64,000 bases of DNA, taken from assembly GCA_900551525.1 (NCBI GenBank), contig URWD01000001.1, positions 5,164 to 69,163 on the forward strand, given 5' to 3'. The notes under the pieces are model-generated. The model made no database searches and was not told the DNA's origin. It saw nothing but the letters and a program-made list of their open reading frames with translations. Positions 2,154 to 64,000 of this stretch are shown one piece after another (the stretch's first letter is position 1; each line of letters starts with the position of its first letter). This stretch comes from an uncultured Mycoplasmatota bacterium (GTDB lineage: Bacteria > Bacillota_I > Bacilli_A > RF39 > UBA660). Position numbers and translations under genes: made by a program.

Positions 2154-3383
2154 ATGACAAATTGGGAAGAATTAAAATGGAGAGGTCTTGTTAAAGATGT
2201 GGCTGGTGATGATATTGCTGATAAAATCAATAATGAAAAAGTTACCTTTTACTGGGGAACAGATCCAACTGCAGACTCTTTACACCTAGGACATTATAGC
2301 TCACTTATTACTGCTAAAAGACTTATGAAAATGGGACATAATCCAATACTTTTATGTGGTGGAGCAACTGGTAGAATTGGAGACCCTAGACCAACTGCAG
2401 AAAGAGAAATTATAAGTATTGATACTCTTAATCACAATATTGAATGTATTAGAAAACAAATTGATAAAGTATTTGATGGTAAAGCAAAACTTGTAAATAA
2501 TTATGACTGGTTTAAAGATTATAATTTCTTAGATTTCTTGCGAGATGTTGGAAAGTATATTAATGTTAATTATATGCTTAGTAAAGATATTATTCAAAGA
2601 AGGCTTGATACTGGTATTACATATGCTGAATTTAGTTATATGTTAATTCAAGGCTATGATTTTTTACATATGTTTAATACAATGGGATGTACTATGCAAG
2701 TTGAAGGTTCTGATCAATGGGGAAATATTACTGCTGGTATAGAGTTAATTAGAAAAATGACTGGTAAAGATGCCTATGCTTTTACAATGCCTTTAATTCT
2801 TGATGCAACTGGTAAAAAATTTGGTAAAAGTGAAGGAAATGCATTATGGCTTGATATAAATAAAACATCAAGTTATGAATTGTATCAATACTTAATTAAT
2901 ACTGATGATTCTAAAGTTTATGAATATTTAAAAGTATTTACATTTTTAACACCAGAAGAAATAGATGAAATAATGGTTAAACAAAATGAAAATCCACATT
3001 TAAGAGTAGCACAAAAAGCATTAGCTAAAGAAATAATTACTGATTTACATGGTGAAGAGGAATTTAACAAAGCTTTAAATATTTCTGAATGTTTATTTTC
3101 AGATAGAATTTGGGAATTATCTGCAAATGAAATAATAGATAGTATTAAAGATATACCTAAATTTAATGTGAAAAATGGTGAACTTTTAATAGATGTACTT
3201 GTAAATAATAATGTTGTTTCTAGTAAAAGAGAAGCTAGAGAAATGATAAATGCTGGAGCAATAAGTATAAATGGTAAAAAAGAAATAGATTTGGAAAAAA
3301 ATATTACTAAAAATGATGCTATTGAAGATAAGGTTTTACTTATAAAGAAAGGTAAGAAAAATTATTTTTTAGGACTTATGTAA
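2154..3383 (+). CDS. tyrS: Tyrosine--tRNA ligase
   Basis: Class I HIGH-like motif (DPTADSLHLGHY), KMSKS-like KFGKS, and a C-terminal S4-like domain. The track ORF at 2091 extends into the T-box terminator. ATG 2154 (MTNWEELKW) lies just after the leader. Confidence 0.93.
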   Translation: MTNWEELKWRGLVKDVAGDDIADKINNEKVTFYWGTDPTADSLHLGHYSSLITAKRLMKMGHNPILLCGGATGRIGDPRPTAEREIISIDTLNHNIECIRKQIDKVFDGKAKLVNNYDWFKDYNFLDFLRDVGKYINVNYMLSKDIIQRRLDTGITYAEFSYMLIQGYDFLHMFNTMGCTMQVEGSDQWGNITAGIELIRKMTGKDAYAFTMPLILDATGKKFGKSEGNALWLDINKTSSYELYQYLINTDDSKVYEYLKVFTFLTPEEIDEIMVKQNENPHLRVAQKALAKEIITDLHGEEEFNKALNISECLFSDRIWELSANEIIDSIKDIPKFNVKNGELLIDVLVNNNVVSSKREAREMINAGAISINGKKEIDLEKNITKNDAIEDKVLLIKKGKKNYFLGLM

Positions 3384-16170: not shown

Positions 16171-17607
16171 ATGGAAAATAGAAAGACAAAAATAATTAGT
16201 GTAGTGGCAGTTGTAGCACTAGCTTTAACAGTAATAACAGCAACATATGCATATTTTAATGCCCAAGTAGGAGATCCAGCAGCAGCGGATGTAAAAATTA
16301 ATGCTAATACAGTGGATACTTTCACATTTGCAAGTGGAAGTGCAATATCTTTTAGTATAAATCAAGATAATTTTGCAAGTGGAGCAGGAAATCAAAGCGG
16401 AAGTACGTATGCTAGTGCTTTGCTTACAGCAAATAATAAGACTAATACTGCAACAGAACATTATTATTTGTATTTGAATATAGAAGATAATACATTTACA
16501 TATTCAATAAATGAAAGTACACCAGAAATAATAATGACAGTAACTGATAGTGGTGGTAATGAAGTAATTGATATAAGTACACTTAATCATGTCATAGTAA
16601 CTGGTGCAAATGGTGATCAAGTATCAGGATATGATATAACTAATAAAAATGGACTTATAACACTATTTAATAATAGAGAAATAACAACAACATCAAGTAA
16701 AGAAGAAAGATGGAATATTAAAGTAACATTTGTTAACTATGATGCAAGTCAAAATGCAAATGCTGGAAAAAGTATGAGTGCAAAGATAATGATACAAAAG
16801 GAAGTAATGCCTTTTCATCAAACATGTAATGATAATACATTAGCATGTCATACAGCAAAATTATACACAGGTACACAAGGACAAAATGGTATTTATTATC
16901 ATGATGCAAGCTTAAAAAATGGAGCAGGAGATAATTCATACAGATTTGCAGGAGCAAGCGATCAAGTAAATAACTATGTATGTTTTGGATCAAACGTAAC
17001 ACCATGCCCAACAGATAATCTATATAGAATAATTGGAGTATTTGGAGATAAAGTAAAACTAATCAAATCAACATCTGTAGGAGATAAAGGATGGAATGGT
17101 ACTGAAGATAATACATGGTCATCATCAAGTTTAAATACATATTTAAATGATGAATTTCTAAATACATTTGATGAAACAATTAAAGGCAAAATAGATACAA
17201 CAACATGGAAGGTTGGAGGATTTAGTAGTAGTGAGCGACCAGCCAAAGCAGTATATCTAAATGAAATTAAATCATCACCAAGTGAAAATAAGAAAATAGG
17301 CTTAATGTATGCAAGTGACTATGGATTTGCGGCGGCACAAAGTGCATGGACAACAAATCTTTATGATTATGAAGGCGAAGCCATCAAAAGTGCAAATTGG
17401 ATGTATATAGGTGCTTCAGAATGGACAATTTCCCGTTTTACGGTCAATTCGATCGGTGCGTTTGAGGTGGGTACAAGTGGCTATGTCGCAGGTCTCGGCA
17501 GCATCGTGACTGATGCGCACGGTGTCCGGCCAGTCTTCAGTCTCACATCTTCCGTGAACTATGCATCGGGAAGTGGTACAACCACTGATCCGATCATAAT
17601 AAACTAG
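16171..17607 (+). CDS. Secreted protein with a TasA/camelysin-type (SipW-cognate-like) signal peptide and N-domain, and a C-terminal C-type-lectin-like domain ending ..AFEVGTSGYVAGLGSIVTDAHGVRPVFSL..
   Basis: The N-terminus KTKIISVVAVVALALTVITATYAYFNAQ resembles the GGTxAxFSD class signal, and TFTFASG matches TasA-like sequence. The C-terminus is paralogous to 59928..61526. The last 180 bp are GC-rich. Confidence 0.7.
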   Translation: MENRKTKIISVVAVVALALTVITATYAYFNAQVGDPAAADVKINANTVDTFTFASGSAISFSINQDNFASGAGNQSGSTYASALLTANNKTNTATEHYYLYLNIEDNTFTYSINESTPEIIMTVTDSGGNEVIDISTLNHVIVTGANGDQVSGYDITNKNGLITLFNNREITTTSSKEERWNIKVTFVNYDASQNANAGKSMSAKIMIQKEVMPFHQTCNDNTLACHTAKLYTGTQGQNGIYYHDASLKNGAGDNSYRFAGASDQVNNYVCFGSNVTPCPTDNLYRIIGVFGDKVKLIKSTSVGDKGWNGTEDNTWSSSSLNTYLNDEFLNTFDETIKGKIDTTTWKVGGFSSSERPAKAVYLNEIKSSPSENKKIGLMYASDYGFAAAQSAWTTNLYDYEGEAIKSANWMYIGASEWTISRFTVNSIGAFEVGTSGYVAGLGSIVTDAHGVRPVFSLTSSVNYASGSGTTTDPIIIN

Positions 17608-50338: not shown

Positions 50339-53176
50339 ATGTACATACCACTTAAAGTAACAACTGATTATACATTATTAAAAAGTTTAATTAAAGTTCC
50401 AAATTTAATTAGTTTTTTAAGTGAAAAGAATATTGATGTATGTGGAATATGTGATGAAAATTTATATGGCGTTCTTGAGTTTTATTATGCTTGTAAGAAA
50501 AATAATATAAAACCAATTGTAGGTTTAGATGTAATAATAGATGATTTAAATATATATTTGTATGCTATGAATTTTGATGGTTATAAAAATTTACTTAAGA
50601 TTCATACTTTAAAAGAAAAAAATGAACTTATATTAGATGATTTAAGTGTATATAAAGATAGTATTTTGTGTATAGTGCCTTTTAAAAGTAAAGAGTTATT
50701 TGATAAATTAAAGTTTTTTAATAACCTTTATATAAGTTACAATAACTCTTTAGAAAGATTAAATGCTTTAACAATAACAAGTAATGTATTATATATAAAT
50801 GATTTAAAAGCTTTAAAGAAAGATGATGTTTTATTTTTTGCATATCTTGATAAATTAAGAAAAGAAGAAGTAGGGATGTATGAACAAAATTATTATTTTG
50901 TGCCTGAAATAGATTTGGGTAAGATAGATGAAGTAGTTAGTTTATTAAATTTGGAATTAAAGTTTAATAAAAAGTATATTCCTAAATATAAGGATGATAT
51001 TGACTCTTCTTCATTTTTACATGATTTATGTTTTAAAGGTCTAACTAAAAGATTAAATGGTAAAGTACCTGATATATATTTAAAAAGATTAAATTATGAA
51101 CTAAAAATAATTAATGAAATGGGATTTGTAGATTATTTTTTAATTGTTTATGATTATGTTTTATATGCTAAAAGGCATGATATTTTAGTGGGACCAGGTC
51201 GGGGATCTGCGGCTGGGTCTTTGGTTAGTTATTCTATTGGTATAACTGAAATTGATCCTTTGAAGTATAATTTATTGTTTGAAAGATTTTTAAATCCCGA
51301 AAGAGTTACAATGCCTGATATCGATGTGGATTTTGATGCTTTAAAAAGAGAAGAAATAATTGAGTATGTCAGAAATAGATATGGTGATAAAAATGTAGCT
51401 TTAGGTCTTACTTTTACAACTTTAAAAAGTAAGTTAGTTCTTAGAGAAATTGGTAAATTATTAAAAATTAATGATACACTTCTTGATAATTTTATTAAAT
51501 GTATAAATGGTAATATTTGTTTAAAAGATAATTTAACAAATGAAAATATTAAAAAGTATTTAAATAATTATAATGAACTTAAGAAGCTTTATAATATATC
51601 AATGCATTTAGAAGGTTTAAAGAAAAATACTTCAACTCATGCTGCAGGTGTAGTAATATCAAGCATTAATTTAGATGAAATAATACCTATTCATTATGAA
51701 AATAATACTTTAATTACTGGTGTAACAATGGATTATCTAGAAAGCATTGGACTCTTAAAAATGGACTTTTTAGCTCTTAAAAATTTAACTACCATAAAAA
51801 ATATATTAGATGAAGTAGGCAAAGAAGCTTTAAAAAATATCGATTTAAATGATAAAGCAGTACTAAATTTATTTTGCACTGGAAAAACTGAAGGAATATT
51901 TCAATTTGAAACAAGTCTTATGAGAAATTTAATTAGAAAACTAAAACCTAGTTCTTTTAATGACTTAGTAGCATCACTTGCTTTAGGAAGACCTGGTGCT
52001 TTAGAAGAAGCTGATGAATATATTGCCAGAAAAAATGGTAAGAAAGAAATTACATATATTCATAAAGATTTAGAACCAATATTAAAAGATACTTATGGAA
52101 TAATTTTATATCAAGAACAGATTATTGCTATTCTAGGTAAAATTGGTGGTTATTCTCTTGCAGAAGCTGACATAATAAGAAGAGCTATTTCTAAGAAAAA
52201 AGAAAGTGTTATTAATGCAGAAAAAGAAAAATTTATAAATGGTGCAATAGGTAAAGGCTATGATAGAAGTGTTGCAACTTTAATTTATGATTTGATAGTT
52301 AAATTTGCAAGTTATGGTTTTAATAAAGCTCATTCAGTTGCTTATGCTCGTATAAGTTATGATATGGCATATTTAAAAGTAAAATATCCAGAATACTTTA
52401 TTATAGAAATGATTAATAATAAAGATAATGAAAAGTTTGCTAAATTAGTTTTGTTTTTAAAAAATAAAGGTATAAAACTTGAAAAACCAGATGTGAATTT
52501 AAGTCATAATAAGTTTTATATAAGTGGAAAAGAGTTAATAATGCCACTTTGGCAAATTAAAGGTATTCCAGAAAACTTGAGTGAGAAAATAATAGAAAAT
52601 AGAAAAGATGGATACACTGATTTTTTTGACTTTGTTTGTAAGAATAAGAAAATCCTTAATGAAAATATTTTAAATACTTTAATTAATGCAGAAGCTCTTA
52701 GAAGTTTTAATTTAAATGAAAGAACTTTAGTGGAAAATATTGCCGTAGCCCTTAATTTTGCAGAAATAGATGATGAACTAATTAAGAAACCTGTTATAAT
52801 TGAATTAGATGATTATAGTGATGAAGTAAAAAGAAATAATGAACTAGAAAGCTTTGGCTATTTTATAACAAATCATCCTGCAAGTAAGTATCAAAATGTG
52901 ATGAAACTTGAAATGCTAGAAAAATATTTATTTAAAAATATTAAGTGTGTTGTTTTAGTAAATAGGATAAGTAATATTAAAACTAAGAAAAATGAAAATA
53001 TGGCATTTATTAGTGCCAGTGATGAAACAGGAACATGTGATTTTACTATTTTTCCTAAGAATATGAATTTAATAAATGATTTAAAAATAGGGGATTTAGT
53101 AGAGATTAATGGAAATGTTTCAAAAAGATTTGACAAAGTAAGTATAATCGTTAATAATATAAAGAAGGTGGTTTAA
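50339..53176 (+). CDS. dnaE: DNA polymerase III alpha subunit, DnaE type (short form, 945 aa)
   Basis: The N-terminal PHP domain, polymerase core with PDIDVDF and FNKAHSVAYA, then an OB-fold. It lacks a long C-terminal extension. Confidence 0.85.
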   Translation: MYIPLKVTTDYTLLKSLIKVPNLISFLSEKNIDVCGICDENLYGVLEFYYACKKNNIKPIVGLDVIIDDLNIYLYAMNFDGYKNLLKIHTLKEKNELILDDLSVYKDSILCIVPFKSKELFDKLKFFNNLYISYNNSLERLNALTITSNVLYINDLKALKKDDVLFFAYLDKLRKEEVGMYEQNYYFVPEIDLGKIDEVVSLLNLELKFNKKYIPKYKDDIDSSSFLHDLCFKGLTKRLNGKVPDIYLKRLNYELKIINEMGFVDYFLIVYDYVLYAKRHDILVGPGRGSAAGSLVSYSIGITEIDPLKYNLLFERFLNPERVTMPDIDVDFDALKREEIIEYVRNRYGDKNVALGLTFTTLKSKLVLREIGKLLKINDTLLDNFIKCINGNICLKDNLTNENIKKYLNNYNELKKLYNISMHLEGLKKNTSTHAAGVVISSINLDEIIPIHYENNTLITGVTMDYLESIGLLKMDFLALKNLTTIKNILDEVGKEALKNIDLNDKAVLNLFCTGKTEGIFQFETSLMRNLIRKLKPSSFNDLVASLALGRPGALEEADEYIARKNGKKEITYIHKDLEPILKDTYGIILYQEQIIAILGKIGGYSLAEADIIRRAISKKKESVINAEKEKFINGAIGKGYDRSVATLIYDLIVKFASYGFNKAHSVAYARISYDMAYLKVKYPEYFIIEMINNKDNEKFAKLVLFLKNKGIKLEKPDVNLSHNKFYISGKELIMPLWQIKGIPENLSEKIIENRKDGYTDFFDFVCKNKKILNENILNTLINAEALRSFNLNERTLVENIAVALNFAEIDDELIKKPVIIELDDYSDEVKRNNELESFGYFITNHPASKYQNVMKLEMLEKYLFKNIKCVVLVNRISNIKTKKNENMAFISASDETGTCDFTIFPKNMNLINDLKIGDLVEINGNVSKRFDKVSIIVNNIKKVV

Positions 53177-53177
53177 A

Positions 53178-56100
53178 ATGAATGAAGAACTAAATAGATT
53201 TTTTAAAAGTATTTCTTTTGTTGATGAATTATTTAATGAAGCAAGTTTAGATAGAGTAGTTTTAAAGAAAAATGAAAATAAATTTTATGTATATATTAAA
53301 AATACAAATGTCTTACCAATAAATAATATAAATAGATTGTTTTTAAGTGCTTTAAGTGGTATTAATGGTGAGAAACCTTGTGAAATTATTATGAATTATG
53401 ATAATGTTACACATGAAGATATAGTAAGTTATATAGATTATTTAATTGATGATATTATTTTAAAAAGACCATCTTTAATAAGTGTAAAAAAAAGTAATAT
53501 TGAAGTAGTAAATGATACAATTTATTTCCATGTTTTAAATGATTTTGAGAAAAGTGATTTAATCCATGAAGGAACAGATTTATTAAATAATTTAAAAAGA
53601 TATGGTCTTGGAGATTATAAACTTGAAGTAATTATTAGTGAAGATGAAAGAAAGAATCTTCAAGAAGAAATAGAACTTGAAAAACAAAGTGTAGTATCTA
53701 AAAAAGAAGAAAGCCCAGTTATACTTGGTGTACATAAAGATGGAGAAGTTACTAAATTAAATAATATTCTTGGTGAAATGAAAAATATCATAATTGAAGT
53801 TTATATTTTTGCTAAAGAAGTAGCAGAAAGACAAGGAAAAAAAGGACCAATCTTTATTATGAATTTGAAAGTATCAGATAAAACTGATAGTTATCCGATG
53901 AAAATTGTAAGATTTAATGAAGAAGAATTTGGTATTTTAAATAAAAAACTTAATGTTGGTTCATGGTATAGAATTCATGGACATATGGAAATGGATGAAT
54001 ATTTACATCAAATGGTAATTAATGCTCGAAATATTGAGATTATTCCATCAAAAGATTTAACTGTTAAAGATGAAGAAGAAGAAAAGAGAGTTGAACTTCA
54101 TGCACATACAATGATGAGTATGATGGATGGAGTAGTTCCAACTGCAACACTTGCTAAATTTGCTATGAAACTAGGCCATAAAGCTGTTGCTGTAACTGAT
54201 CATAATTCACTTCAGGCTTATCCAGATATTTATAATGCTTTGGCTAAAGTTAATAAGGGAAAAGAAGATAAAGATAAGTTTAAAGCATTATATGGAGCAG
54301 AACTTAATATTGTTGATGTTGAATCAAATATTGTTTTTAAAAATAAAGAATATTCATTATTTGATCAAGAATATGTTGTATATGATACTGAAACTACTGG
54401 GCTTAATAGTGGTATTGATCAAATGATAGAAATCGGGGCAGTTAAAGTTAAAAATAATGAGATAATTGATAGATTTGATGAACTTATTGCGTGTCCTACA
54501 CCTCTTCCAAAGATTATAACAGAACTAACTAATATTACTGATGAAATGTTAGTAGGTAAAGATAGTGAAGAAAATGTAACAAGAAGATTCTTAGAGTTCT
54601 GTGGAGATAGGCCATTAGTTGCTCATAATGCTCAATTTGATATTTCCTTTGTTACAAGTGCATGTAAAAAATATAATTTAGGTGAGTTTAATAATACTGT
54701 TGTAGATACAATGGGACTTGCAAGAAATATGTATCCTGATTGGAGAAATCATAAGCTTTCAACACTTGTTAAAAACTTAGAAGTTGAATGGGATGAAGAT
54801 AAACACCATAGAGCTGATTATGACTGTGAAGGAACAAGTAAATGTTTTTATAAAATGTTATATGAATTAAAAAGTCAAAATATTAAAACTACTTTAGATT
54901 TAGAAACTTTAGCAGACCAAGAAAATGCTATTAAATTTGCAAGACCTTTCCATTTAACTGTAATTGCTAAAAATCCAGTGGGTCTTAAAAATTTATTTAA
55001 AATTATTTCACTTGCTAATACTAAATATTTATATAAAGGAAAAGATGCTAAATTACCTAGAACCGATTTAATTAATTTGCGAGATGGCTTAATTGTTGGG
55101 AGTGGTTGTGTTAATGGTGAAGTCTTTGATAAAGGTTATGGCATGAGTGATGACGACTTAAAAGATTTAATGAATTTTTATGATTATATTGAGGTTCAAC
55201 CAGCATCCGCTTGTTCACATTTAATTGGTGAAGATAAAAAATTTCATAATACTCTTGAATATAATGGTTATATTACAAGACTTGTAAAACTTGCTAAATC
55301 GATGGGAAAACTTGTTTGTGCAACTGGTGATGTTCATAATTTAAGGCCTGAAGATTTAATATATCGTAAAGTTATTGTTCATCAAAAAACAAATGGTAAA
55401 ATACATCCTCTTAATAGACCTGATATAGAGCTACCTAATATGTTCTTTATGACAACTAGAGAAATGCTGGATGCGTTTTCCTTCTTAGGTGATGATTTAG
55501 CTAAAGAAATAGTTGTAACAAATACTAACAAAATAGCTGATATGGTAGAACACTTGCAAATAATTAGAGATAAATTATATACTCCGGTTTTGGAAAATAG
55601 TGCCGAAGTAACTAAAGAAATGGTTTATAATAAAGCTCATGAAATATATGGTGATCCACTTCCGAAAAATATTGAAGAAAGGCTTGAAGCAGAACTTGCT
55701 GGTATCATTGGTGGGGGATATGACGTTATTTATCTTATCGCGGAAAAACTAGTTAAAAAATCAAACGAAGATGGTTACTTTGTAGGTTCCCGTGGTTCTG
55801 TTGGTTCAAGTTTAGTTGCCACGATGATGGGAATAACAGAAGTTAATGGTCTTCCTCCACATTATGTTTGTCCAAAATGCAAAAAATCTTATTTTGAAGA
55901 TGAAAATGGAGAAAGTCTAGCTAGTCTTTATCCATCTGGCTATGATATGCCTGATAGAACTTGTGAATGTGGAAGCAAACTCAAAAAAGAAGGTCAAGAT
56001 ATGCCATTTGCAACATTCCTTGGATTTAAAGCGGAAAAGGTACCAGATATCGACCTTAACTTCTCTGGTGATAATCAAGCTGATGCTCATAACCATGTAA

Positions 56101-57488
56101 AGGTACTATTCGGTGAAGATCATGCTTATCGTGCAGGAACTATTTCAACTGTTGCGGAAAAAACTGCTTTTGGTTATGTAAAAGCATATTGTGAAGATAA
56201 GGGAATTATTCTAAATAATACAGAAATAGAACGTATTTCTATTGGATGTACTGGTGTTAAAAGAACAACTGGACAACATCCTGGTGGTATTATTGTTATT
56301 CCTCAATATATGGACGTATTTGATTTTACTCCATATCAATATCCAGCTGATGAACCAGATAGTACTTGGTACACAACTCACTTTGATTTCCATGCTATTC
56401 ATGATAATGTTTTAAAACTAGATATTCTTGGACACGATGATCCAACAATGCTAAGATATTTAGGAGATACAACAGGTATAAATATTAAAGAAGAAATACC
56501 ATTTGATGATAAGAATATAATTAGTTTATTTACATCTCCGAAAGCTTTAGGTGTTACGGAAGAACAAATTTTATGTAAAACAGGAACTTTAGGTATTCCT
56601 GAATTTGGTACAAACTTTGCTATAAACATGCTTCTTGAAATTAAACCTACACATTTTGCAGACTTAGTTAAGATCGCCGGTTTATCTCACGGGACTAATG
56701 TATGGCAAGGAAACGTTCGTGATTTAATTGTAAATAACGTAGCTTCATTTAATGAAGTTGTTGGTTGTCGTGATGATATAATGGTTAGTTTAATAAACTA
56801 TGGTCTAGATCCATCTAGAGCCTTCAAAATATCTGAGTTTGTTCGTAAGGGAAAAGCTAAAAAAGAACCAGATACTTGGCTTGAACATGTAGCATACATG
56901 AGAGAGTTTAGTGTTCCTGAGTGGTTTATTGAGTGTTGTAGAAAGATAGAATACATGTTTCCAAAGGCTCATGCATGTGCTTATGTTATGATGGCATATC
57001 GTGTTGCATGGTTTAAAGTCTATTATCCTCTTTATTATTATTCAGCATTCTTTAGTATAAGAAGAAGTGATTTTGATGTAAATGCTATGCTTAAAGGCTA
57101 CGATGGTATTAAAAGAAGACTTATTGAAATTAAAGAAAAAGGCTTTGGAGCATCCGCTAAAGAATCTGCAGTAGGTGATACTCTAGCAGTTGCACTTGAA
57201 ATGTTAGCTCGTGGTTTTACCTTTAAAAATATTGATATAACTAAGTCACTTGCTAAAACATTTTATATTGATGAAGAAAATAAATGCTTATATTTACCAT
57301 TTATGGCTGTTGATGGTCTTGGTGAAAATGTTGCAAATAAAATTGTGGAAGAAAGAAATAAGAAACCATTCTACTGTGTTGAAGATTTTCAAATGCGTGG
57401 AAAGGTGAATCAAACAACAGTTAATGCTCTTCGTGAACTTGGTGTTTTTGAAGGAATGCCTGAATCTGCTCAACTTAGTTTATTTTAA
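53178..57488 (+). CDS. polC: DNA polymerase III PolC-type (Gram-positive replicative polymerase)
   Basis: 1436 aa. DnaQ-like exonuclease (YVVYDTETTGL, HNAQFDISF, HRADYD). PHP domain with Zn finger CPKC..CECG. Pol III alpha core. Confidence 0.95.
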   Translation: MNEELNRFFKSISFVDELFNEASLDRVVLKKNENKFYVYIKNTNVLPINNINRLFLSALSGINGEKPCEIIMNYDNVTHEDIVSYIDYLIDDIILKRPSLISVKKSNIEVVNDTIYFHVLNDFEKSDLIHEGTDLLNNLKRYGLGDYKLEVIISEDERKNLQEEIELEKQSVVSKKEESPVILGVHKDGEVTKLNNILGEMKNIIIEVYIFAKEVAERQGKKGPIFIMNLKVSDKTDSYPMKIVRFNEEEFGILNKKLNVGSWYRIHGHMEMDEYLHQMVINARNIEIIPSKDLTVKDEEEEKRVELHAHTMMSMMDGVVPTATLAKFAMKLGHKAVAVTDHNSLQAYPDIYNALAKVNKGKEDKDKFKALYGAELNIVDVESNIVFKNKEYSLFDQEYVVYDTETTGLNSGIDQMIEIGAVKVKNNEIIDRFDELIACPTPLPKIITELTNITDEMLVGKDSEENVTRRFLEFCGDRPLVAHNAQFDISFVTSACKKYNLGEFNNTVVDTMGLARNMYPDWRNHKLSTLVKNLEVEWDEDKHHRADYDCEGTSKCFYKMLYELKSQNIKTTLDLETLADQENAIKFARPFHLTVIAKNPVGLKNLFKIISLANTKYLYKGKDAKLPRTDLINLRDGLIVGSGCVNGEVFDKGYGMSDDDLKDLMNFYDYIEVQPASACSHLIGEDKKFHNTLEYNGYITRLVKLAKSMGKLVCATGDVHNLRPEDLIYRKVIVHQKTNGKIHPLNRPDIELPNMFFMTTREMLDAFSFLGDDLAKEIVVTNTNKIADMVEHLQIIRDKLYTPVLENSAEVTKEMVYNKAHEIYGDPLPKNIEERLEAELAGIIGGGYDVIYLIAEKLVKKSNEDGYFVGSRGSVGSSLVATMMGITEVNGLPPHYVCPKCKKSYFEDENGESLASLYPSGYDMPDRTCECGSKLKKEGQDMPFATFLGFKAEKVPDIDLNFSGDNQADAHNHVKVLFGEDHAYRAGTISTVAEKTAFGYVKAYCEDKGIILNNTEIERISIGCTGVKRTTGQHPGGIIVIPQYMDVFDFTPYQYPADEPDSTWYTTHFDFHAIHDNVLKLDILGHDDPTMLRYLGDTTGINIKEEIPFDDKNIISLFTSPKALGVTEEQILCKTGTLGIPEFGTNFAINMLLEIKPTHFADLVKIAGLSHGTNVWQGNVRDLIVNNVASFNEVVGCRDDIMVSLINYGLDPSRAFKISEFVRKGKAKKEPDTWLEHVAYMREFSVPEWFIECCRKIEYMFPKAHACAYVMMAYRVAWFKVYYPLYYYSAFFSIRRSDFDVNAMLKGYDGIKRRLIEIKEKGFGASAKESAVGDTLAVALEMLARGFTFKNIDITKSLAKTFYIDEENKCLYLPFMAVDGLGENVANKIVEERNKKPFYCVEDFQMRGKVNQTTVNALRELGVFEGMPESAQLSLF

Positions 57489-57530
57489 AAAAAACAAACT
57501 AGTCTTTGATGACTGGCTTGTTTTTTATTT
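57489..57530. terminator. Bidirectional terminator between polC (+) and tmcAL (-)
   Basis: aacaaactagtc-tttgat-gactggcttgtt followed by T6. Confidence 0.6.
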
Positions 57531-58593
57531 CAAATTCATAAGTATTGGTATTATTAATTAAATCATAAATTAAACTAGCTTTTAATTCATAATCATAAAC
57601 TTTAGTGTTTTTGTAATTGGTTATGCAATTTATTTTTTGTAAGTAATTTCTACCTATGTTATCAAAACCTATTATTCTAAGATAGTTATTATCTATATAC
57701 TTATCTCTTTTTTTAAGCCCAATTAATATATGAATAAACATTCTATTTAATTTGTTATATGTATATCTTTTAGTTTTAACTTTTTCTATAAATTCATCTA
57801 TATTATTAGAAATAATTATATTCTTTTTAAGTCTATATTCTATTCCTTCATCTACATCTAAATAATTATTTAAATTATCATCAGTTATAATCTTACTTTT
57901 TAATAAATTAAAATACATATCTTTATTAATTTTAATTAAATCATCTATTACTTCATTAGGTAAATATTTGCTTATATTTTCATTTAATTTTAGTTTATTT
58001 CTAATATTTGAGGCACTTATTATTTCTTCGTTACTATGTAAATCATGATAATCATTTGTTCTTTTGATGCATTCTTGCTTTATATTAAATTTATTTTCTT
58101 TTATTGCTTTTATATAAGAAATACCAAGTAGATCATTTGGTTTATATTCAAAATCAATTTTTGTTGCTTTAGCAAGTGCAGTAGGATAATTAATACCTTC
58201 ATCTAAATATGCTTTTACTAGTTTTCCAAATTCAGGTTCTAATTGTGTGTCAGCAAGTTTTTCTAAAAGAAGAATATCTGCACATTCACTACCAAATATA
58301 ATTTTATTTACATTTAATTTATTAAGTAATTTAATGCTCATATTTGCAAATGTATCCGCGGATTGTGTTCCATATATAAATGGTAGTTCTAAAACTATAT
58401 TAACTCCGTAGTTTAAAGCTATTTTTGCTTTATTTTCTTTTGTTAAGAGAGATATTTCTCCGCGTTCTAAAAAATATCCATTTAATACTAATATTAATAT
58501 TGAATCAGGATACATTTCTTTTATTTTATTTATGTGATAAATATGACCATTATGAAAAGGATTATATTCTGCGATTATACCTATTATTTCCAC
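57499..58593 (-). CDS. tmcAL: tRNA(Met) cytidine acetate ligase (YlbM/UPF0348 nucleotidyltransferase family)
   Basis: N-terminal IIAEYNPFHNGHIYHI (HxGH-like), and length and architecture matching the YlbM family. Confidence 0.75.
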   Translation of the reverse strand: MEIIGIIAEYNPFHNGHIYHINKIKEMYPDSILILVLNGYFLERGEISLLTKENKAKIALNYGVNIVLELPFIYGTQSADTFANMSIKLLNKLNVNKIIFGSECADILLLEKLADTQLEPEFGKLVKAYLDEGINYPTALAKATKIDFEYKPNDLLGISYIKAIKENKFNIKQECIKRTNDYHDLHSNEEIISASNIRNKLKLNENISKYLPNEVIDDLIKINKDMYFNLLKSKIITDDNLNNYLDVDEGIEYRLKKNIIISNNIDEFIEKVKTKRYTYNKLNRMFIHILIGLKKRDKYIDNNYLRIIGFDNIGRNYLQKINCITNYKNTKVYDYELKASLIYDLINNTNTYEFEIKNKPVIKD

Positions 58594-58772
58594 TATTTAA
58601 ACACCTCTTGTTTCATATAATATCAAAACTTTAATGCTTTTTCAATAATATATTATTTTTAATATTTAAATGTTATATACTTAATGTGTATTAATTAACT
58701 TGCCAAGTGTTAATACCATAAATCTTTAGTCGACAATTTATATTTTTGAGGCAAGCATAATATATCTATTCG

Positions 58773-58802
58773 GGCATTTCCTACGGGAATGCTCTTTTTT
58801 TA
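58773..58802 (+). terminator. Orphan hairpin with T-run: gcatttcc-tacg-ggaatgc followed by T9
   Basis: Seen in sequence. There is no upstream plus-strand CDS, so it may end a short untranslated transcript or act as an attenuator for the ORF6N region. Confidence 0.35.
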
Positions 58803-58819
58803 AAAATAGAAAAATTTGC

Positions 58820-58836
58820 GGTCCCAATTTGGGACC
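58820..58836. repeat. Palindrome ggtccc-aattt-gggacc (copy 1)
   Basis: Perfect 6-bp arms. A second extended copy lies at 58902-58926. Confidence 0.7.
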
Positions 58837-58877
58837 ACAAAAAGACAAAAAATAATTTTGAAAAGGAGGATGAAATA

Positions 58878-58940
58878 ATGAAAAATAATGATGCGAACGT
58901 TCTAAGGTCCCAAATTGGGACCTTAGAATTAAAAAAATAA
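58878..58940 (+). CDS. Possible 20-aa leader/regulatory peptide MKNNDANVLRSQIGTLELKK
   Basis: Strong RBS aaaggagga. The ORF contains the second ggtccc-aaatt-gggacc palindrome. Lies immediately upstream of the ORF6N gene. Confidence 0.25.
   Translation: MKNNDANVLRSQIGTLELKK
58902..58926. repeat. Palindrome ctaaggtccc-aaatt-gggaccttag (copy 2, 10-bp arms)
   Basis: A perfect inverted repeat sharing the ggtccc..gggacc core with copy 1. Confidence 0.7.
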
Positions 58941-58951
58941 AGGAGGTAAAA

Positions 58952-59803
58952 ATGAATAATTTAATAGTTAATAATAATGAAAGAATAGAAAGCTTGATCT
59001 ATAACATAAGAGATAAACAAGTAATGTTAGATAGTGATTTAGCTAGACTTTATGGGGTAGAAACCAAAAGAATAAATGAAGCAGTTAAAAATAATGTTGA
59101 AAAATTTCCAGAAAGGTTTTCTTGGATTTTAAATGATCTTGATGCTTTAAACTTGAGGTCGAAAATTTCGACCTCAAGTCATGGAGGAAGAAGATATAAC
59201 CCACGAGTATTTACTGAACAAGGTGTTGCTATGCTTGCAACAATACTAAAATCCCAAACAGCAACAAAAGTAAGTATTGCAATAATGGATGCTTTTGTTC
59301 TTATGAGAAGATATATTTCCACAAATCTAGTTGAACAAAAATACATAAATAATCAAGTTCTTAAAAATACGGAAGATATAAAAATACTAAAAGAAACTTT
59401 TGATGAATTTAAACCTAAAATTAATTCATTATTTTATGAAGGACAAATTTACGATGCATATTCTCTTTTATTAGAAATTTTAAATAAATCTAAAGATAGC
59501 ATAATTATCATTGATAATTATGCAGGTAAAGAACTTTTAGATATTCTTAAAAATATAAATAAGAATATTATAATTGTTTCAAAAAATATAGATGAGATAA
59601 CTAAAATTAAATATTTAAAACAATATAATAATATAACGTTTATTAATGATGATACATTTCATGATAGGTTTATTATAATAGATAAAGAAATATTATATAC
59701 TTCTGGTGCATCTTTTAAAGATTTAGGTAAAAAATGCTTTTGTATAAGTAAAATAGAAGATAAAGAAATATTAAATAATATACTTGCAAAAATAAAAATA
59801 TAA
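58952..59803 (+). CDS. ORF6N (KilA-N-related) domain DNA-binding protein, phage antirepressor-like
   Basis: IRDKQVMLDSDLARLYGVETKRINEAVKNNVEKFPERF...SSHGGRRYNPRVFTEQGVAMLATILKS matches the ORF6N domain consensus. Confidence 0.8.
   Translation: MNNLIVNNNERIESLIYNIRDKQVMLDSDLARLYGVETKRINEAVKNNVEKFPERFSWILNDLDALNLRSKISTSSHGGRRYNPRVFTEQGVAMLATILKSQTATKVSIAIMDAFVLMRRYISTNLVEQKYINNQVLKNTEDIKILKETFDEFKPKINSLFYEGQIYDAYSLLLEILNKSKDSIIIIDNYAGKELLDILKNINKNIIIVSKNIDEITKIKYLKQYNNITFINDDTFHDRFIIIDKEILYTSGASFKDLGKKCFCISKIEDKEILNNILAKIKI
59152..59178. repeat. 27-bp palindrome cttgaggtcgaaa-a-tttcgacctcaag inside the ORF6N CDS (encodes LRSKISTS)
   Basis: Perfect 13-bp arms. A near-identical copy lies just after the stop (59805-59831). 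Confidence 0.7.
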
Positions 59804-59804
59804 A

Positions 59805-59831
59805 CTTGAGGTCGAAATTTTCGACCTCAAG
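59805..59831. repeat. 27-bp palindrome cttgaggtcgaaa-t-tttcgacctcaag, 2 nt after the ORF6N stop (probable terminator hairpin)
   Basis: Identical arms to the internal copy. Confidence 0.7.
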
Positions 59832-59927
59832 TTACATTTTCTAAACATAAAATTATAAAATTTATTACTTTAATATTTTCTTTTTATAAAATTTATGATA
59901 AACTATTAATAGTAGGGTGATTGACTT

Positions 59928-61526
59928 ATGAAGAAATTTATAAAAAAAATTAAAAGTAATAAATTTTTATATATATTAAGTGTTTTAATTGTGGGAGTAT
60001 TTTTTATACTTATTGCAAGAGTTACTTATGCTTTTTTAGCACCAATTATTAATAATGCTCAGACTAATATAGTTATAAAAGGTAATACTGTAGATGAATT
60101 TAAATTAAAGGTGGGAAATCCTCTTAAGTTAGATGCAACACCAACTACTTTAAAAGAAAATGGTACTAATTATACTACAAGTACTACAGCTACTGCTTCT
60201 TTAAAAGCTAATAGTACTAAAAATACTGCTACTTATAATTATTATTTGTATTTTCAAATAGAAAATAATACATTTACATATACGAGTGGAACCACACCAG
60301 AAATAATACTTACTATAACTAATCCAAATGGTGAAGAAGTTACATCAATTAATGGCCTTACTTATGGGACTTTTAATGGTGTATCAGGGTTTGACGTAAC
60401 AACTCAAAATGGCTTATTTAGTATTGCCAATAACTATCAAATAACATCTAATTCAAGTACAACAGCAACAACCCAAGAATGGACAATAACATTAACTTAT
60501 CTAAATCAAAGTTATGATCAATCAGCAAACTTTGGCAAGAGTATGGAGGTAAATGTACTGTTACAAAAAGAAGAAATTTCATTGCCCTTTCATGAAAGTT
60601 GTAATGGTGATACATTAGCATGCCATGTAGCAAAACTATATACAGGAACTCAAGGAGAAAATAATATTTATTATCATGATGGAAAACTAGAAAATGGTAT
60701 CGATGATAAATCGTATAGATATGCCGGAGCAAGTGAAAGTGTAAATAATTATGTATGTTTTGGAAGTAGTGAAACAACATGTCCAACAGAAAATTTATAC
60801 AGAATAATTGGTGTATTTAATGGTGAAACAAAGTTGATTAAGTCAACAGCTGCAACTAGTACATTACTAGGAACAGATGGAGATTATTATTTGTTAGGAA
60901 CAGATGGAGATTATGAGTTGGATACGATTTACTATTACTGGAATAAGCATGCAACAACAAACAATGGGAAAAACACTTGGAGTTATAGCTTATTAAATAA
61001 AGTGAACTTAAACACAAATTTCATAACAAATATCGGAGATGAGTGGGCAAAAAAAATAGCAATGACAACATGGAAAGTTGGAGGAAATACACGTGCAAAT
61101 ATAGCTGAAGTAGTTCCAGCTATAACGTATCAAAATGAAATCGTAAATCCAGTAACAACAAATACTATGGATAACACAACAGAATATACGGCGAAAATTG
61201 GCTTAATGTATGTGTCTGACTATGGGTTTGCAGCAAGTCCGAGTGCATGGACAAGTACAATGGATTACTATAATGAGCCCTCAATAACGTCAGTGAATTG
61301 GATGCTGATAGAGAAATATGAATGGACAATTACACGTGAATCTAGTGAAACTTACTATGCCTTTTTAGCTGGAATAACTGATGGCTTAAATGGTGTTTTC
61401 GGTTACATGGTGAATAGCTTAGACTCATACTATAGTTTGATTGTTCGCCCAGTCTTCTATCTTGAATCATCAGTAACCTATGTCTCAGGTACTGGTACTT
61501 CAAGTGATCCAATAAGAATCAATTAA
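59928..61526 (+). CDS. Secreted protein, paralogue of 16171..17607 (TasA/SipW-signal-like N-terminus, C-type-lectin-like C-terminus ending ..IVRPVFYLESSVTYVSGTGTSSDPIRIN)
   Basis: Signal/TM KFLYILSVLIVGVFFILIARVTYAFLAP. Blocks conserved with 16171: HESCNGDTLACHVAKLYTGTQGENNIYYHD, NLYRIIGVF, GLMYVSDYGFAA. Composition is uniformly AT-rich (no GC patch). Confidence 0.7.
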   Translation: MKKFIKKIKSNKFLYILSVLIVGVFFILIARVTYAFLAPIINNAQTNIVIKGNTVDEFKLKVGNPLKLDATPTTLKENGTNYTTSTTATASLKANSTKNTATYNYYLYFQIENNTFTYTSGTTPEIILTITNPNGEEVTSINGLTYGTFNGVSGFDVTTQNGLFSIANNYQITSNSSTTATTQEWTITLTYLNQSYDQSANFGKSMEVNVLLQKEEISLPFHESCNGDTLACHVAKLYTGTQGENNIYYHDGKLENGIDDKSYRYAGASESVNNYVCFGSSETTCPTENLYRIIGVFNGETKLIKSTAATSTLLGTDGDYYLLGTDGDYELDTIYYYWNKHATTNNGKNTWSYSLLNKVNLNTNFITNIGDEWAKKIAMTTWKVGGNTRANIAEVVPAITYQNEIVNPVTTNTMDNTTEYTAKIGLMYVSDYGFAASPSAWTSTMDYYNEPSITSVNWMLIEKYEWTITRESSETYYAFLAGITDGLNGVFGYMVNSLDSYYSLIVRPVFYLESSVTYVSGTGTSSDPIRIN

Positions 61527-61545
61527 CAGAAAGGAATTGATATAA

Positions 61546-62484
61546 ATGAAAATATTATGTATAGGTCATTCAAGTTGGGATATAACTGTTCCAGTTGATG
61601 AATACCCAATTGAAAATACTAAATATAGATATAATGAAAAATATTCATCTGGTGGTGGTCCTGCATCTAATGCTGCATATCTACTTGGTAAATGGGGCAT
61701 AGATACAGTTATTGCAAGCACTATAGGTTCTGATGACTTTGGAACAAACATTAAAAAAGAGTTTCAAGATATCCACGTAAATACAGATTATATAGAAACT
61801 AGTTATGATAAAGATACATCTTTATCATTTATCCTTATAAATAAAAAAAATGGCTCTAGAACTGTATTTAATGTTGCAACAGAACATCCTGCATTAAAAA
61901 AACTAAGTTATGATTTTACTCCAGATATTATTTTTACTGATGGACATGATTATGGTGCTAGTCAAAATGCAATTAGTAAATATCAAAATGCAATTAGTAT
62001 AATTGATGCTGGTAGAGTAACACCAGAACTACTTGAATTATGTAAATATATTAAATATATAGTATGCAGTAAAGGTTTTGCTGAAACAGTTACTGGTATG
62101 AAATTTGATTATAGTAATCCAAGTATATTAGTTGCTATATATAATAAATTACAAGATAAATACCCAAATAGTAATATTGTAATTACTTTAGAAGAAAAAG
62201 GGTGTTTATATCAAGTGGGTAATGAAATAAAAATAATGCCAGGTCTTAAAGTAAATGCAGTAGATACTACTGGTGCTGGAGATATATTTCATGGAGCATT
62301 TACTTATGGTATAGCAAATAATTTCGATATGGAAAAAACTATAACACTTGCAAATATTGCAGCAGGTTTATCTGTTACTAAAATTGGATCAAGATTATCA
62401 ATTCCAACTTTATCAGAAGTACTTGATTATTATGCAAAAAAAACTGGTATGGTAAATAATAATGATAACAAGCAAAACTCCTAG
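61546..62484 (+). CDS. PfkB-family carbohydrate kinase (ribokinase-like)
   Basis: N-terminal GG motif (SSGGGPASNAA) and the C-terminal DTTGAGD anion-hole motif. Confidence 0.85.
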   Translation: MKILCIGHSSWDITVPVDEYPIENTKYRYNEKYSSGGGPASNAAYLLGKWGIDTVIASTIGSDDFGTNIKKEFQDIHVNTDYIETSYDKDTSLSFILINKKNGSRTVFNVATEHPALKKLSYDFTPDIIFTDGHDYGASQNAISKYQNAISIIDAGRVTPELLELCKYIKYIVCSKGFAETVTGMKFDYSNPSILVAIYNKLQDKYPNSNIVITLEEKGCLYQVGNEIKIMPGLKVNAVDTTGAGDIFHGAFTYGIANNFDMEKTITLANIAAGLSVTKIGSRLSIPTLSEVLDYYAKKTGMVNNNDNKQNS

Positions 62485-62716
62485 ACTTGATTTACATGGA
62501 GAGATCGTTCCCATGGTAGAAGTACTTGTAAATGAATTTATTAGGGATAATAAGGCTATGAATAATGATACGATTATCATTATTCATGGGAAAAGTACTA
62601 ATATACTTACGGAAGAAGTACATAATGTTTTAAGAAAGCATAAAGATGTAATAAGATATTATAAAAATAATTGGAATTTGGGAGAAACTATTGTAGAAAT
62701 AAATACTAAAAAATAA
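62462..62716 (+). CDS. Small Smr (MutS2 C-terminal-like) domain protein, 84 aa
   Basis: RLDLHG...(E)..V..F......IIIIHGKSTNILTEEVHNVL matches Smr-domain blocks (LDLHG / HGKG). Confidence 0.65.
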   Translation: MITSKTPRLDLHGEIVPMVEVLVNEFIRDNKAMNNDTIIIIHGKSTNILTEEVHNVLRKHKDVIRYYKNNWNLGETIVEINTKK

Positions 62717-62749
62717 ATAAATTAGCAATAAAATAAAACAATAAAATGC

Positions 62750-62948
62750 TTGACATAGTTGCTTTTGCTGGTATATAATATAAATGTACTTGAAAGAGTA
62801 TAACATGAAAATGTTAATCGCCTACCGGTGGTGCGAGCAATAAGTTATCCGGTGTGAGTATGTTAATCGCTTACTGGTGGCGCGAGCAATAAGTTATCCA
62901 GTATGAAAATGTAAAACTTAATAGAAAACTATTGAGTTTTTTTATTTG
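62750..62948 (+). ncRNA. Structured-RNA cassette A: sigma-A promoter (TTGACA 62750-62755 / TATAAT), conserved leader, 2.3 tandem 49-nt hairpin-pseudoknot repeats (units at 62813 and 62862), weak terminator 62925-62948
   Basis: Unit 1 has stem tcgc/gcga, loop cTACCGGtggt pairing with downstream CCGGTG. Unit 2 has loop tTACTGGtggc pairing with CCAGTA. No ORF. Confidence 0.55.
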
Positions 62949-62993
62949 AAATTATAAAATTTATAATAGCAATAAAACAAAGCAGCGATTTGC

Positions 62994-63180
62994 TTGACAT
63001 AGTAGCTATTCCAGCGTATAATATAAATGTACTTGAAAAAGTATAACAGAAAGTGTTTCTCGCTCTCGGATGGTGCGAGTAATAAATTATTCCGAGCGAT
63101 AATGTTTCTCACTAACGGGTGGTGTGAGTAATAAATAATCCCGTTGTTTGCTCAATCTAAACATGTTGAGCTTTTTATTT
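62994..63180 (+). ncRNA. Structured-RNA cassette B (paralogue of A): TTGACA 62994-62999, 17-nt spacer, TATAAT 63017-63022, same leader, two 49-nt units (63055, 63104), strong terminator 63150-63180
   Basis: Unit 1 has stem ctcgc/gcgag, loop tCTCGGAtggt pairing with TCCGAG. Unit 2 has stem ctcac/gtgag, loop tAACGGGtggt pairing with CCCGTT. Terminator gctcaa-tctaaacatg-ttgagc followed by T5. Confidence 0.55.
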
Positions 63181-63248
63181 TGTATTTTTAACAAATAAAT
63201 GTTTGCTTTTGCTATAAGAGTATGGTATTATATTAGTAGGTGGTTATA

Positions 63249-64000
63249 ATGGTTTATTTAAAAGAATTTAGTTTAGTTAGTGAAAATACTGAAAATATAA
63301 TTTTAAGTGAAGAAAAAAGAACATATTTTCATAATCAATATCCATTTAGAATATTTCCAAAAAAAGAATTTAAAGATATTAAATTTAGTGATGTAACTAT
63401 ACTTTATGGTGGTAATGGCTCTGGTAAATCAACAATTTTAAATATAATTGCTAATAAACTTAATTGTGATGGATCATTTGGGGTACATGGAGAAATGATG
63501 ATGAAGTATTTGGAACATTGCAGATTTGAAACATCTATGGAATATTTTGAAGAAGCTAAGATAATAAGAAGCGATGATGTATTTGATTATATATCTAATG
63601 TAAGAAGAATAAATAACCGAGGATTTAGTCAAAGAGAAATGTTATTTAGAGAATACTTTGATAATAAAGATAAAACAATTGATGATATGAATGACTATCA
63701 AAATTTGAAAAATTCAATTGATGCTAAAAGAAAAAGTGCATCAAATTATGTTAGAAATAGAGTACTTGATAAAGATGTAAAAGAGCAATCTAATGGAGAG
63801 GCAGCCCTTATGTATTTTGTATCTGAAATAAAAGAAAATAGCTTATATTTACTTGATGAACCTGAAAATAGTATGTCTGCCGCGATGCAACTTAAACTCA
63901 CTAAATTTTTAGAAGAATCTGCAAGATTCTTTAATTGTCAATTTATTATTGCTACTCACTCACCATTTTTACTTGGTATGAACGGTGCCATAATATATGA
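63249..64000 (+). CDS. AAA_21/AAA_15-type (ABC-like) ATPase, 3' truncated by window edge
   Basis: RBS aggtgg. Walker A GGNGSGKST. The C-terminal block LYLLDEPENSMSAAMQLKL..F....QFIIATHSPFLL (D-loop/H-loop of SMC/ABC-like AAA_21) is as found in OLD/Gabija/PARIS/RloC-type defence ATPases. The frame is open to the end of the window. Confidence 0.75.
   Translation, partial: MVYLKEFSLVSENTENIILSEEKRTYFHNQYPFRIFPKKEFKDIKFSDVTILYGGNGSGKSTILNIIANKLNCDGSFGVHGEMMMKYLEHCRFETSMEYFEEAKIIRSDDVFDYISNVRRINNRGFSQREMLFREYFDNKDKTIDDMNDYQNLKNSIDAKRKSASNYVRNRVLDKDVKEQSNGEAALMYFVSEIKENSLYLLDEPENSMSAAMQLKLTKFLEESARFFNCQFIIATHSPFLLGMNGAIIY

Follow-up and report, generated by a model that had tools for sequence, protein, structure and literature searches.

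The last part of a 64,000-nt stretch from an uncultured gut bacterium (contig URWD01000001.1 of assembly GCA_900551525.1, positions 5,164-69,163 of the forward strand; G+C content 26%), hereafter referred to as the window, raises the question of what is encoded between an open reading frame (ORF) for a stand-alone Smr-domain protein and an ORF for an ABC-type ATPase. The two ORFs are separated by a non-coding stretch of 532 nt containing two similar RNA cassettes. The first-pass annotation of this DNA considered the Smr ORF, the RNA cassettes, and the ATPase ORF, which is cut by the window edge, as the probable boundary of a defence island, and proposed an RNA-guided or RNA-regulated defence or abortive-infection module with an effector beyond position 64000. 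All three elements are indeed located where that annotation placed them. The two cassettes can be assigned with very high confidence to CptI-type arrays lacking a local toxin; that is, they are genes for the antitoxin RNA of a CptI-family type III toxin-antitoxin (TA) system, the antitoxin function being predicted from the sequence.

In each cassette, a constitutive sigma-70 promoter is followed by a short 5' hairpin, then by two 49-nt units in tandem, and finally by an intrinsic terminator, all on the forward (+) strand. From promoter to terminator, cassette 1 spans positions 62750-62944 and cassette 2 spans positions 62994-63181. Both promoters match the consensus at 12 out of 12 positions (TTGACA-18 nt-TATAAT at 62750-62779 and TTGACA-17 nt-TATAAT at 62994-63022, respectively). 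The leaders of the two cassettes (repeat family D3) are 97% identical and are predicted to fold into the same hairpin, which is located at 62786-62801 (GUACUU-GAAA-GAGUAU) in cassette 1 and at 63029-63044 in cassette 2; the 44-nt leader folds at -4 kcal/mol or below in 66 of the 90 promoter-bearing arrays of other genomes. The units were recognized by a profile with E-values of 1.8e-11 (unit 1a, 62810-62858), 1.3e-12 (unit 1b, 62859-62907), 7.3e-15 (unit 2a, 63052-63100), and 1.8e-12 (unit 2b, 63101-63149), and these four are exactly the matches obtained over 64 kb (starts at 62810, 62859, 63052, and 63101; E = 7e-15 to 2e-11). A degenerate 15-mer derived from the unit also has four matches there, vs. 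0.55 expected by chance for the whole window. The terminator of cassette 1 (62916-62944), identified by RNA folding, is an AT-rich hairpin ACUUAAUAG-AAAA-CUAUUGAGU followed by U7, and that of cassette 2 (63150-63181), identified by a terminator scan, is formed by GCUCAAU...GUUGAGC with a U-run and is the same at 27/27 nt in the sister species. The proposal of independently transcribed, structured RNAs thus holds at the level of sequence prediction, with the cassettes having their own promoters, terminators, and pseudoknots. No Rfam family scored at its gathering threshold in the window except for one tRNA, and the sole match at E <= 10 in the region 62600-63300 was a chance-level small RNA (18 bits, cut-off 48), with no riboswitch.

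Comparison of the four units yielded two helices, namely a 5-bp stem 1 (S1) and a stem 2 (S2) formed by the loop of S1 and a downstream segment, resulting in an H-type pseudoknot with an 11-nt A-rich loop. In unit 1a, S1 is formed by positions 62817-62821 and 62833-62837 (4/5 pairs), and S2 is formed by 62824-62828 (ACCGG) and 62849-62853 (CCGGT; 5/5 pairs). The S2 of unit 1b (ACUGG/CCAGU) represents a compensatory change with respect to that of unit 1a. All ten pairs are formed in unit 2a (S1 CUCGC/GCGAG, S2 CUCGGA/UCCGAG), which has zero mismatches at the conserved columns, as well as in unit 2b (S1 CUCAC/GUGAG, S2 ACGGG/CCCGU), whose S1 is compensatory relative to unit 2a. A covariation alignment was built from 85 distinct units of many genomes, all selected beforehand for at least 4 nt of complementarity in S2; in it, 93.4% of cells are paired. 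Double compensatory changes were observed in all five S2 pairs (125 cells vs. 37 +/- 5 in shuffled alignments), a value that was not reached in any of 500 shuffles, and sliding the partner by 1-3 columns decreased the pairing to 30-56%. The pairing in an unfiltered profile census was similar to that in the pre-filtered alignment. The CptI antitoxin was described as an H-type pseudoknot with a one-base loop L1 and a long A-rich loop (PMC4627078). The E. rectale CptI repeat, as given by a primer, is AAGUUUACCAC-UG-ACCGA-UAU-GUGGU-AUAUAAAUG-GUCGG (PMC4627078), and unit 2b of the window, AUGUUUCUCAC-UA-ACGGG-UGGU-GUGAG-UAAUAAAUAAU-CCCGU, has the same layout. A four-unit array was noted at another locus (L026, 2230-2440), in which each CptI unit has a different stem 2 (CCCGGA, CUCGGG, UCCGAG, and UCUAGG) with a matching 3' arm; such non-identical repeats might prevent mispairing among neighbouring units.

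The identity of the cassettes was resolved because variation among strains gave the key clue, namely an ORF between the cassettes in one of them. Human-gut metagenome scaffolds were retrieved by looking up the exact Smr protein in public assemblies. The spacer between the Smr and ATPase genes varies between 242 and 532 nt among strains and includes one or two cassettes, each with one or two units. In one strain (L016), a 269-aa ORF is inserted between cassettes 1 and 2, and its N-terminal 150 aa match CptN from the E. rectale CptIN complex (PDB 4RMO, chain 4rmo_A; E = 5.7e-19). Neither Pfam nor PADLOC produced a match for this allelic toxin, which was identified by the PDB sequence search alone. 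The same ORF was found downstream of cassette 1 in L016 and L018-L025, and in toxin-bearing strains cptN starts approximately 60 nt past the cassette 1 terminator. The toxin (P0121) is present in 77 blocks of the assembly collection, and wherever the gene order was read it is Smr, cassette 1, cptN, cassette 2, ATPase, ireB. Further CptN homologues (L026-L032 and L044) are preceded by the same units. In other gut bacteria, CptN homologues with identities of 60-69% have upstream arrays of two to four such units, in which the S2 arms often differ among units, always in a compensatory manner. A tblastn search with the allelic toxin gave no match in the 64-kb window or in L001-L015 and L017; since the RNA is present and CptN is not, the window contains only the RNA component. 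The protein partner of these RNAs is the CptN endoribonuclease, which is encoded at this locus in other strains and is absent from the window. A length of 267-269 aa was noted for some of the lineage's CptN toxins (L016, 5300-5715; L030, 2950-3304), which carry a C-terminal extension of approximately 120 aa; no match to this extension was found in Pfam, PADLOC, or PDB.

The site between the Smr and ATPase genes differs in content between related species as well. The loci of three species representatives are 91-94% (L060 and L079) and approximately 90% (L063) identical to the window at the nucleotide level. In two of them (L060, reverse strand, 2170-3380; L079, reverse strand, 1-1150) three arrays occupy the same site in the order Smr, a different array of two identical units followed by a CptN of approximately 160 aa, a promoterless copy of cassette 1 that directly follows this toxin and has none itself, cassette 2, and the ATPase. 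Judging by these arrangements, the exchange of toxin modules apparently leaves behind a growing number of antitoxin arrays, and the site between the two resident genes is a strain-variable hotspot for type III TA systems. The cassettes represent two RNA subtypes, UUAAUCGC...GAGCAAUAA for cassette 1 and UUUCUCGC...GAGUAAUAA for cassette 2. Toxins are 67-68% identical within an RNA subtype vs. 58% between subtypes, a modest relation that agrees with the RNA-toxin co-variation reported for CptIN; no relation was seen between RNA subtype and toxin length. A complete cptIN of the same subfamily, with two units and a 159-aa CptN, was also found on an IMG/VR contig (L044, 4500-5240), where it adjoins large membrane-protein and ATPase ORFs resembling conjugation genes, a context indicating that the module is carried on mobile DNA. 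In a scan of viral contigs for phage-borne orphan arrays, this complete cptIN was the one true match, and 15 further matches were due to chance.

A pattern scan of 185,579 species-representative genomes detected at least 120 loci. The counts in this paragraph refer to the matches listed, nearly all of which come from gut metagenome-assembled genomes titled uncultured Bacilli, Tenericutes, Mycoplasma sp. CAG:472, or Erysipelotrichaceae. Arrays were defined as toxin-linked if CptN was encoded at most 500 nt downstream, and as orphan if at least 700 nt of downstream sequence contained no CptN. As a result, 78 arrays were classified as toxin-linked and 42 as orphan (42/120 classifiable), whereas 16 were cut by contig ends. 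Single-unit arrays constitute 15/42 of the orphans vs. 10/78 of the toxin-linked arrays, a near-consensus promoter was found for 16/42 vs. 61/76, and the portion of units with at least 9/10 pairs is 81 vs. 91%. The genes downstream of orphans are mixed (thyA-like, transposase-like, Smr, ATPase, and others). Only six of the 42 orphans are fully intact, and three of these six are cassette 2 of the window's genus.

The same tendency is seen within the window's species, where toxin-bearing strains have canonical units, whereas six toxin-less haplotypes demonstrate loss of units and/or one to three changes at otherwise conserved columns; the window haplotype is toxin-less yet fully intact. This pattern fits a history in which the toxin was lost and the antitoxin has since been decaying slowly, the window representing an early stage. 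Between sister species (L003 vs. L015), unit 2b with its terminator has two differences in 108 nt, compared with 22% divergence at four-fold sites of the ATPase gene. However, the identity of other intergenic regions in this genome pair, with indels left out of the count, is 95-99% vs. approximately 98% for the unit 2b region, and therefore we claim no selection on it. Non-coding DNA as a whole is unusually conserved in these AT-rich genomes, as seen in the same pair.

Of the two flanking genes, the Smr ORF (62462-62716, + strand) encodes an 84-aa protein matching Pfam Smr (E = 2.8e-12, 47 bits, cut-off 25.7) and, among NCBIfam models, the C-terminal region of MutS2 (E = 3.5e-11). Its start overlaps by 23 nt the end of a pfkB-family sugar kinase gene (61546-62484, + strand; Pfam PfkB E = 1.5e-37), which is mentioned for context and whose best NCBIfam match, ribokinase, is under its cut-off; because of this overlap, the two genes are probably co-translated. 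The exact Smr protein was found in 291 blocks of the public assembly collection and is unchanged in strains with and without the toxin. Smr is a resident chromosomal gene upstream of the arrays, co-transcribed with the kinase gene, and is a neighbour of the RNAs rather than a component of their system. Smr genes were noted near CptI units elsewhere, too. In another gut Bacilli species (L029, 2501-3252; L108) an 88-aa Smr gene begins 18 nt after cptN, and in a related genome (L136, 191-722) a degenerate single orphan CptI unit without a toxin is followed by an Smr gene approximately 220 nt on.

The ATPase ORF (63249-64000, + strand) has 250 of its 285 codons in the window. It is preceded by a probable promoter of its own, TTGCTT-17 nt-TGgTATTAT with an extended -10 element (63203-63231, + strand), and by a ribosome-binding site AGGTGG (63238-63243, + strand), both read from the sequence; the TGnTATTAT element is kept in all aligned strains. 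The motifs described in the first-pass annotation, GGNGSGKST (Walker A) and LLDEPE...ATHSP (Walker B and H-loop), are present, as is the signature SNGE, and the domain search confirmed AAA_21 (E = 2.5e-15) and AAA_15 (E = 2.5e-13) along with ABC_tran, with no additional domain in 285 aa. NCBIfam gave only matches well under the cut-offs, to ABC-F proteins, transporter ATPases, and PtuA (29 bits, cut-off 500). The PADLOC matches, to PtuA, AriA, and AbiLi, are mostly partial or weak; the best one is to PtuA (residues 87-257, E = 3e-19), and one short AriA model is matched nearly end to end (ATPase residues 42-243 vs. model positions 23-237 of 253, E = 2.8e-15). The PDB sequence search detected only generic ABC motifs in P-loop or signature stretches, and an AlphaFold2 model built from a shallow alignment (mean pLDDT 54) was too poor for use.

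An exhaustive search placed the ATPase in a family of full-length relatives, mostly of 280-310 aa (194 clusters at E <= 1e-30). The 80 metagenome loci examined, of relatives with 38-95% identity, have no recurrent neighbour in common. Among approximately 140 neighbour proteins in their flanks, 93 are singletons and the few clusters come from near-identical contigs; a minority of neighbours are close enough for an operon, with no obvious nuclease among them. An orthologue with 69% identity retains synteny with ireB-ruvX-mltG but lacks the RNA, a NUDIX gene being located 63 nt upstream. CptI units upstream of ATPase relatives are confined to the window's genus, being found at one of 84 loci, that of the 95%-identical relative. 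Finally, in one strain (L008, 10548-11398) the ATPase gene is split into ORFs of 220 and 75 aa with the rest of the locus unchanged, which suggests that the ATPase is dispensable. The ATPase is a solitary gene that borders the TA hotspot by happenstance and is not part of the RNA system.

The effector expected past position 64000 and the defence-island boundary itself did not survive extension of the sequence. A strain scaffold (L003) that is 100% identical to window positions 52462-64000 over 11,539 nt contains the complete 285-aa ATPase, which stops 35 codons past the window edge. After a gap of 312 nt, it is followed by ireB, ruvX, an 88-aa ORF, yceG/mltG, an O-methyltransferase gene, two U32 peptidase genes, greA, tig, a 191-aa ORF, and mnmA, with no TOPRIM, HNH, or DUF4435 gene and no nuclease partner; dnaE, polC, and a HIGH_NTase1 gene are located upstream of the region. 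The site is a small variable spot within a core-gene region and not the edge of a defence island. The downstream genes are thus ordinary, which is the first of two findings named in the first-pass annotation as refuting its proposal. As to the second, the ATPase matches no housekeeping family, and its matches to defence families are mostly partial. Further upstream, 3.4 kb away, the window encodes a 283-aa ORF6N-domain protein (58952-59803, + strand), for which PADLOC gave a nearly end-to-end match to PDC-S05, a candidate defence family (E = 2.4e-90); the protein varies between 221 and 289 aa across strains and is absent in L005. The 532-aa product of a neighbouring gene (59928-61526, + strand) has an N-terminal membrane anchor and no Pfam match in the window, its strain variants being 491-537 aa long and in some cases matching DUF6273; a 43%-identical paralogue is encoded at 16177-17604 (+ strand).

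We favour with good confidence the explanation that the window contains two orphan CptI arrays, whose toxin was lost, at a strain-variable type III TA hotspot, and we incline, with less assurance, to regard the arrays as relics without a maintained function. By analogy with the E. rectale CptIN complex, terminator read-through in toxin-keeping strains would provide expression of the downstream cptN, whose product would cleave the precursor RNA at its conserved A-rich junctions (..RAAAUGUU..). Each resulting pseudoknot would inactivate one CptN molecule by binding it; once transcription ceased, breakdown of the labile RNA would leave CptN free to arrest growth. The arrays of the window would be made as unprocessed RNAs of approximately 150-160 nt. 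Loss of the toxin before the antitoxin makes sense, because the cell survives this order of events and not the reverse one. Several points weigh against this explanation. The 12/12 promoters on both arrays and the intactness of all four units are unexpected for a long-dead relic and imply either recent loss or continued selection. Besides the window, at least three species-level representatives (L060, L063, and L079) possess cassette 2 as an intact orphan, which hints at maintenance. CptN is possibly encoded elsewhere in the genome, beyond the approximately 73 kb examined, and the tested CptIN systems conferred no phage resistance in E. coli (PMC3401426).

The same intactness of promoters and of four fully paired units despite the missing toxin, together with the persistence of cassette 2 across the window's genus, could alternatively mean that the orphan arrays are kept as trans-acting antitoxins, neutralizing CptN encoded by plasmids, conjugative elements, or phages or elsewhere in the genome, so that the cell resists post-segregational killing or safely loses such elements. 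Incoming toxins do exist, as cptIN is present on the contig with conjugation genes, the two RNA subtypes tracking two toxin clades would jointly offer two specificities, and phage pseudo-ToxI arrays suppressing ToxN provide a precedent (PMC5086642). We nevertheless consider this possibility unlikely: orphans are on average degraded across species by promoter loss, unit loss, and more mispairs, arrays are mutated or shortened in several strains of the window's species, unit 2b with its terminator is conserved no better than other intergenic regions, and CptI was reported to be highly toxin-specific (PMC5086642). An extended version, in which toxin-less CptI arrays form a maintained chromosomal RNA immunity against CptN toxins of mobile elements, is less probable again. 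Under it, varied compensatory repeats could broaden or tune the specificity, and the Smr-ATPase site would be a landing hotspot of successive cptIN modules with accumulating antitoxins.

The remaining alternatives assign the arrays to their neighbours. In the window's genus, cassette 2 and its terminator are without exception next to the start of the ATPase gene, the terminator-to-promoter stretch is invariant, and the promoter-RNA-terminator-gene architecture is that seen with the toxin, which might indicate that cassette 2 regulates the ATPase gene in cis as a leader, i.e., as a riboswitch or an attenuator, or that the ATPase replaced the toxin as the RNA-bound or RNA-regulated protein. This is very improbable, given that the same RNA precedes CptN genes in 78 arrays elsewhere among the matches listed, that the 69%-identical orthologue lacks the RNA and CptI units occur at a single one of the 84 relative loci, that the ATPase has a probable, conserved extended -10 promoter of its own, and that no Rfam riboswitch was matched. 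The specific candidate of a tandem riboswitch or attenuator was rejected in view of the position of the RNA ahead of CptN elsewhere and of the ATPase relatives without the RNA. A link between Smr and CptIN, such as a role of Smr on ribosomes stalled at CptN-cut mRNAs or in antitoxin degradation, is somewhat less far-fetched but still quite doubtful. Smr and the arrays occur side by side in two gene orders, pfkB-Smr-array in the window's genus and cptN-Smr in L029 and L108, with L136 as an additional case, whereas a rough estimate gives approximately 0.2 cases expected by chance in about 110 arrays (within 1.5 kb, for a genome of approximately 1.5-2 Mb). On the other side, Smr is nearby at only 4/112 array loci among the matches listed, most CptIN loci, including L026, L030, L044, and the published systems, lack it, L108 and L136 may represent the same ancestral locus, and Smr does not change with the presence of the toxin. 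We therefore treat the association, which exceeds the chance expectation, as a lead and not a finding. Almost certainly wrong is the original proposal that Smr, the RNA arrays, and the AAA_21 ATPase together act as a Gabija-, PARIS-, Septu-, or OLD-like defence module, guided or regulated by RNA, whose effector is encoded past the window edge. It could draw on the Pfam AAA_21 and AAA_15 matches, the partial PADLOC matches to PtuA and AriA (E down to 3e-19), and the match of the upstream ORF6N protein to PDC-S05. However, the genes downstream are ireB, ruvX, mltG, greA, and tig, the neighbours of the ATPase relatives are non-recurrent, the RNAs have a demonstrated other partner in CptN, and the ATPase is split in one strain with an otherwise unchanged locus. 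What stands of the suggested abortive-infection RNA module is that the RNAs belong to a type III TA family, CptIN; Smr and the ATPase are not their partners.

A speculative RNA-guided defence island is hereby replaced by a concrete identification of CptI-type type III antitoxin arrays, a family that is common in a little-studied lineage of uncultured gut Bacilli and about a third of whose arrays, among the matches listed, are toxin-less. The cptIN survey of 2012 (Blower et al.) required a toxin gene to call a locus and noted truncated toxins with full repeat sets (PMC3401426), and the word "orphan" is used neither there (PMC3401426) nor in a 2016 review (PMC5086642) nor in the tenpIN survey of 2025 (PMC12283969). 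Orphans were invisible to published surveys because a toxin gene was required. Those orphans that are maintained, if any, would be the RNA counterpart of anti-addiction antitoxins; otherwise, orphans record the sequence of events expected in TA decay, in which the toxin goes first. As CptI is not in Rfam, orphan arrays are also a warning for annotation pipelines.

Among known systems, PtuA (Septu, retrons), AriA (PARIS), GajA (Gabija), and OLD share the ABC-type ATPase core with the window ATPase, which differs from them in its length of 285 aa, in having no fused or adjacent nuclease and no conserved family partner, and in keeping housekeeping synteny in two genera. Like the arrays described here, the ToxIN and AbiQ systems use a tandem-repeat pseudoknot antitoxin RNA to inhibit an endoribonuclease toxin, with a leaky terminator in between, but both the toxin family and the RNA fold are different, ToxI being a 36-nt, triplex-rich RNA in a heterohexamer. 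Protection against phages has been demonstrated with ToxIN, AbiQ, and TenpIN, in contrast to the CptIN systems tested. Phage pseudo-ToxI and type II orphans such as chromosomal ccdA are similar in being antitoxin-only loci able to neutralize a toxin encoded elsewhere. Pseudo-ToxI, however, is phage-borne and arose under selection for escape from ToxN, type II orphans are proteins, and orphans of the present kind, whose trans function is hypothetical, look decayed on average.

The closest system is the E. rectale CptIN. The two share the order of promoter, tandem repeats, intrinsic terminator, and, in the allelic strains, a CptN-homologous gene; the H-type pseudoknot, in which S1 and S2 have 5 bp each, L1 is very short, and the A-rich loop is long; similar A-rich unit starts (..AAGUUU / ..AAUGUU); and approximately two repeats per array. 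The 2012 survey reported repeats of 40-48 nt in 1.9-3.4 copies and toxins of 45-213 aa (PMC3401426), and cptI repeats are near-identical according to the 2025 tenpIN survey (PMC12283969). In contrast, the unit described here is 49 nt long, 1 nt over the published range; the repeats are often non-identical, with compensatory changes within an array in S2 and, in the window, also in S1; the allelic toxin has 269 aa with its C-terminal extension of approximately 120 aa; and the window has no toxin gene. The hosts are also different, being uncultured gut Bacilli, in records titled Tenericutes or Mycoplasma sp. CAG:472, rather than Lachnospiraceae. The feature is a toxin-less member of the CptIN kind in a little-studied lineage and not a new kind of system.

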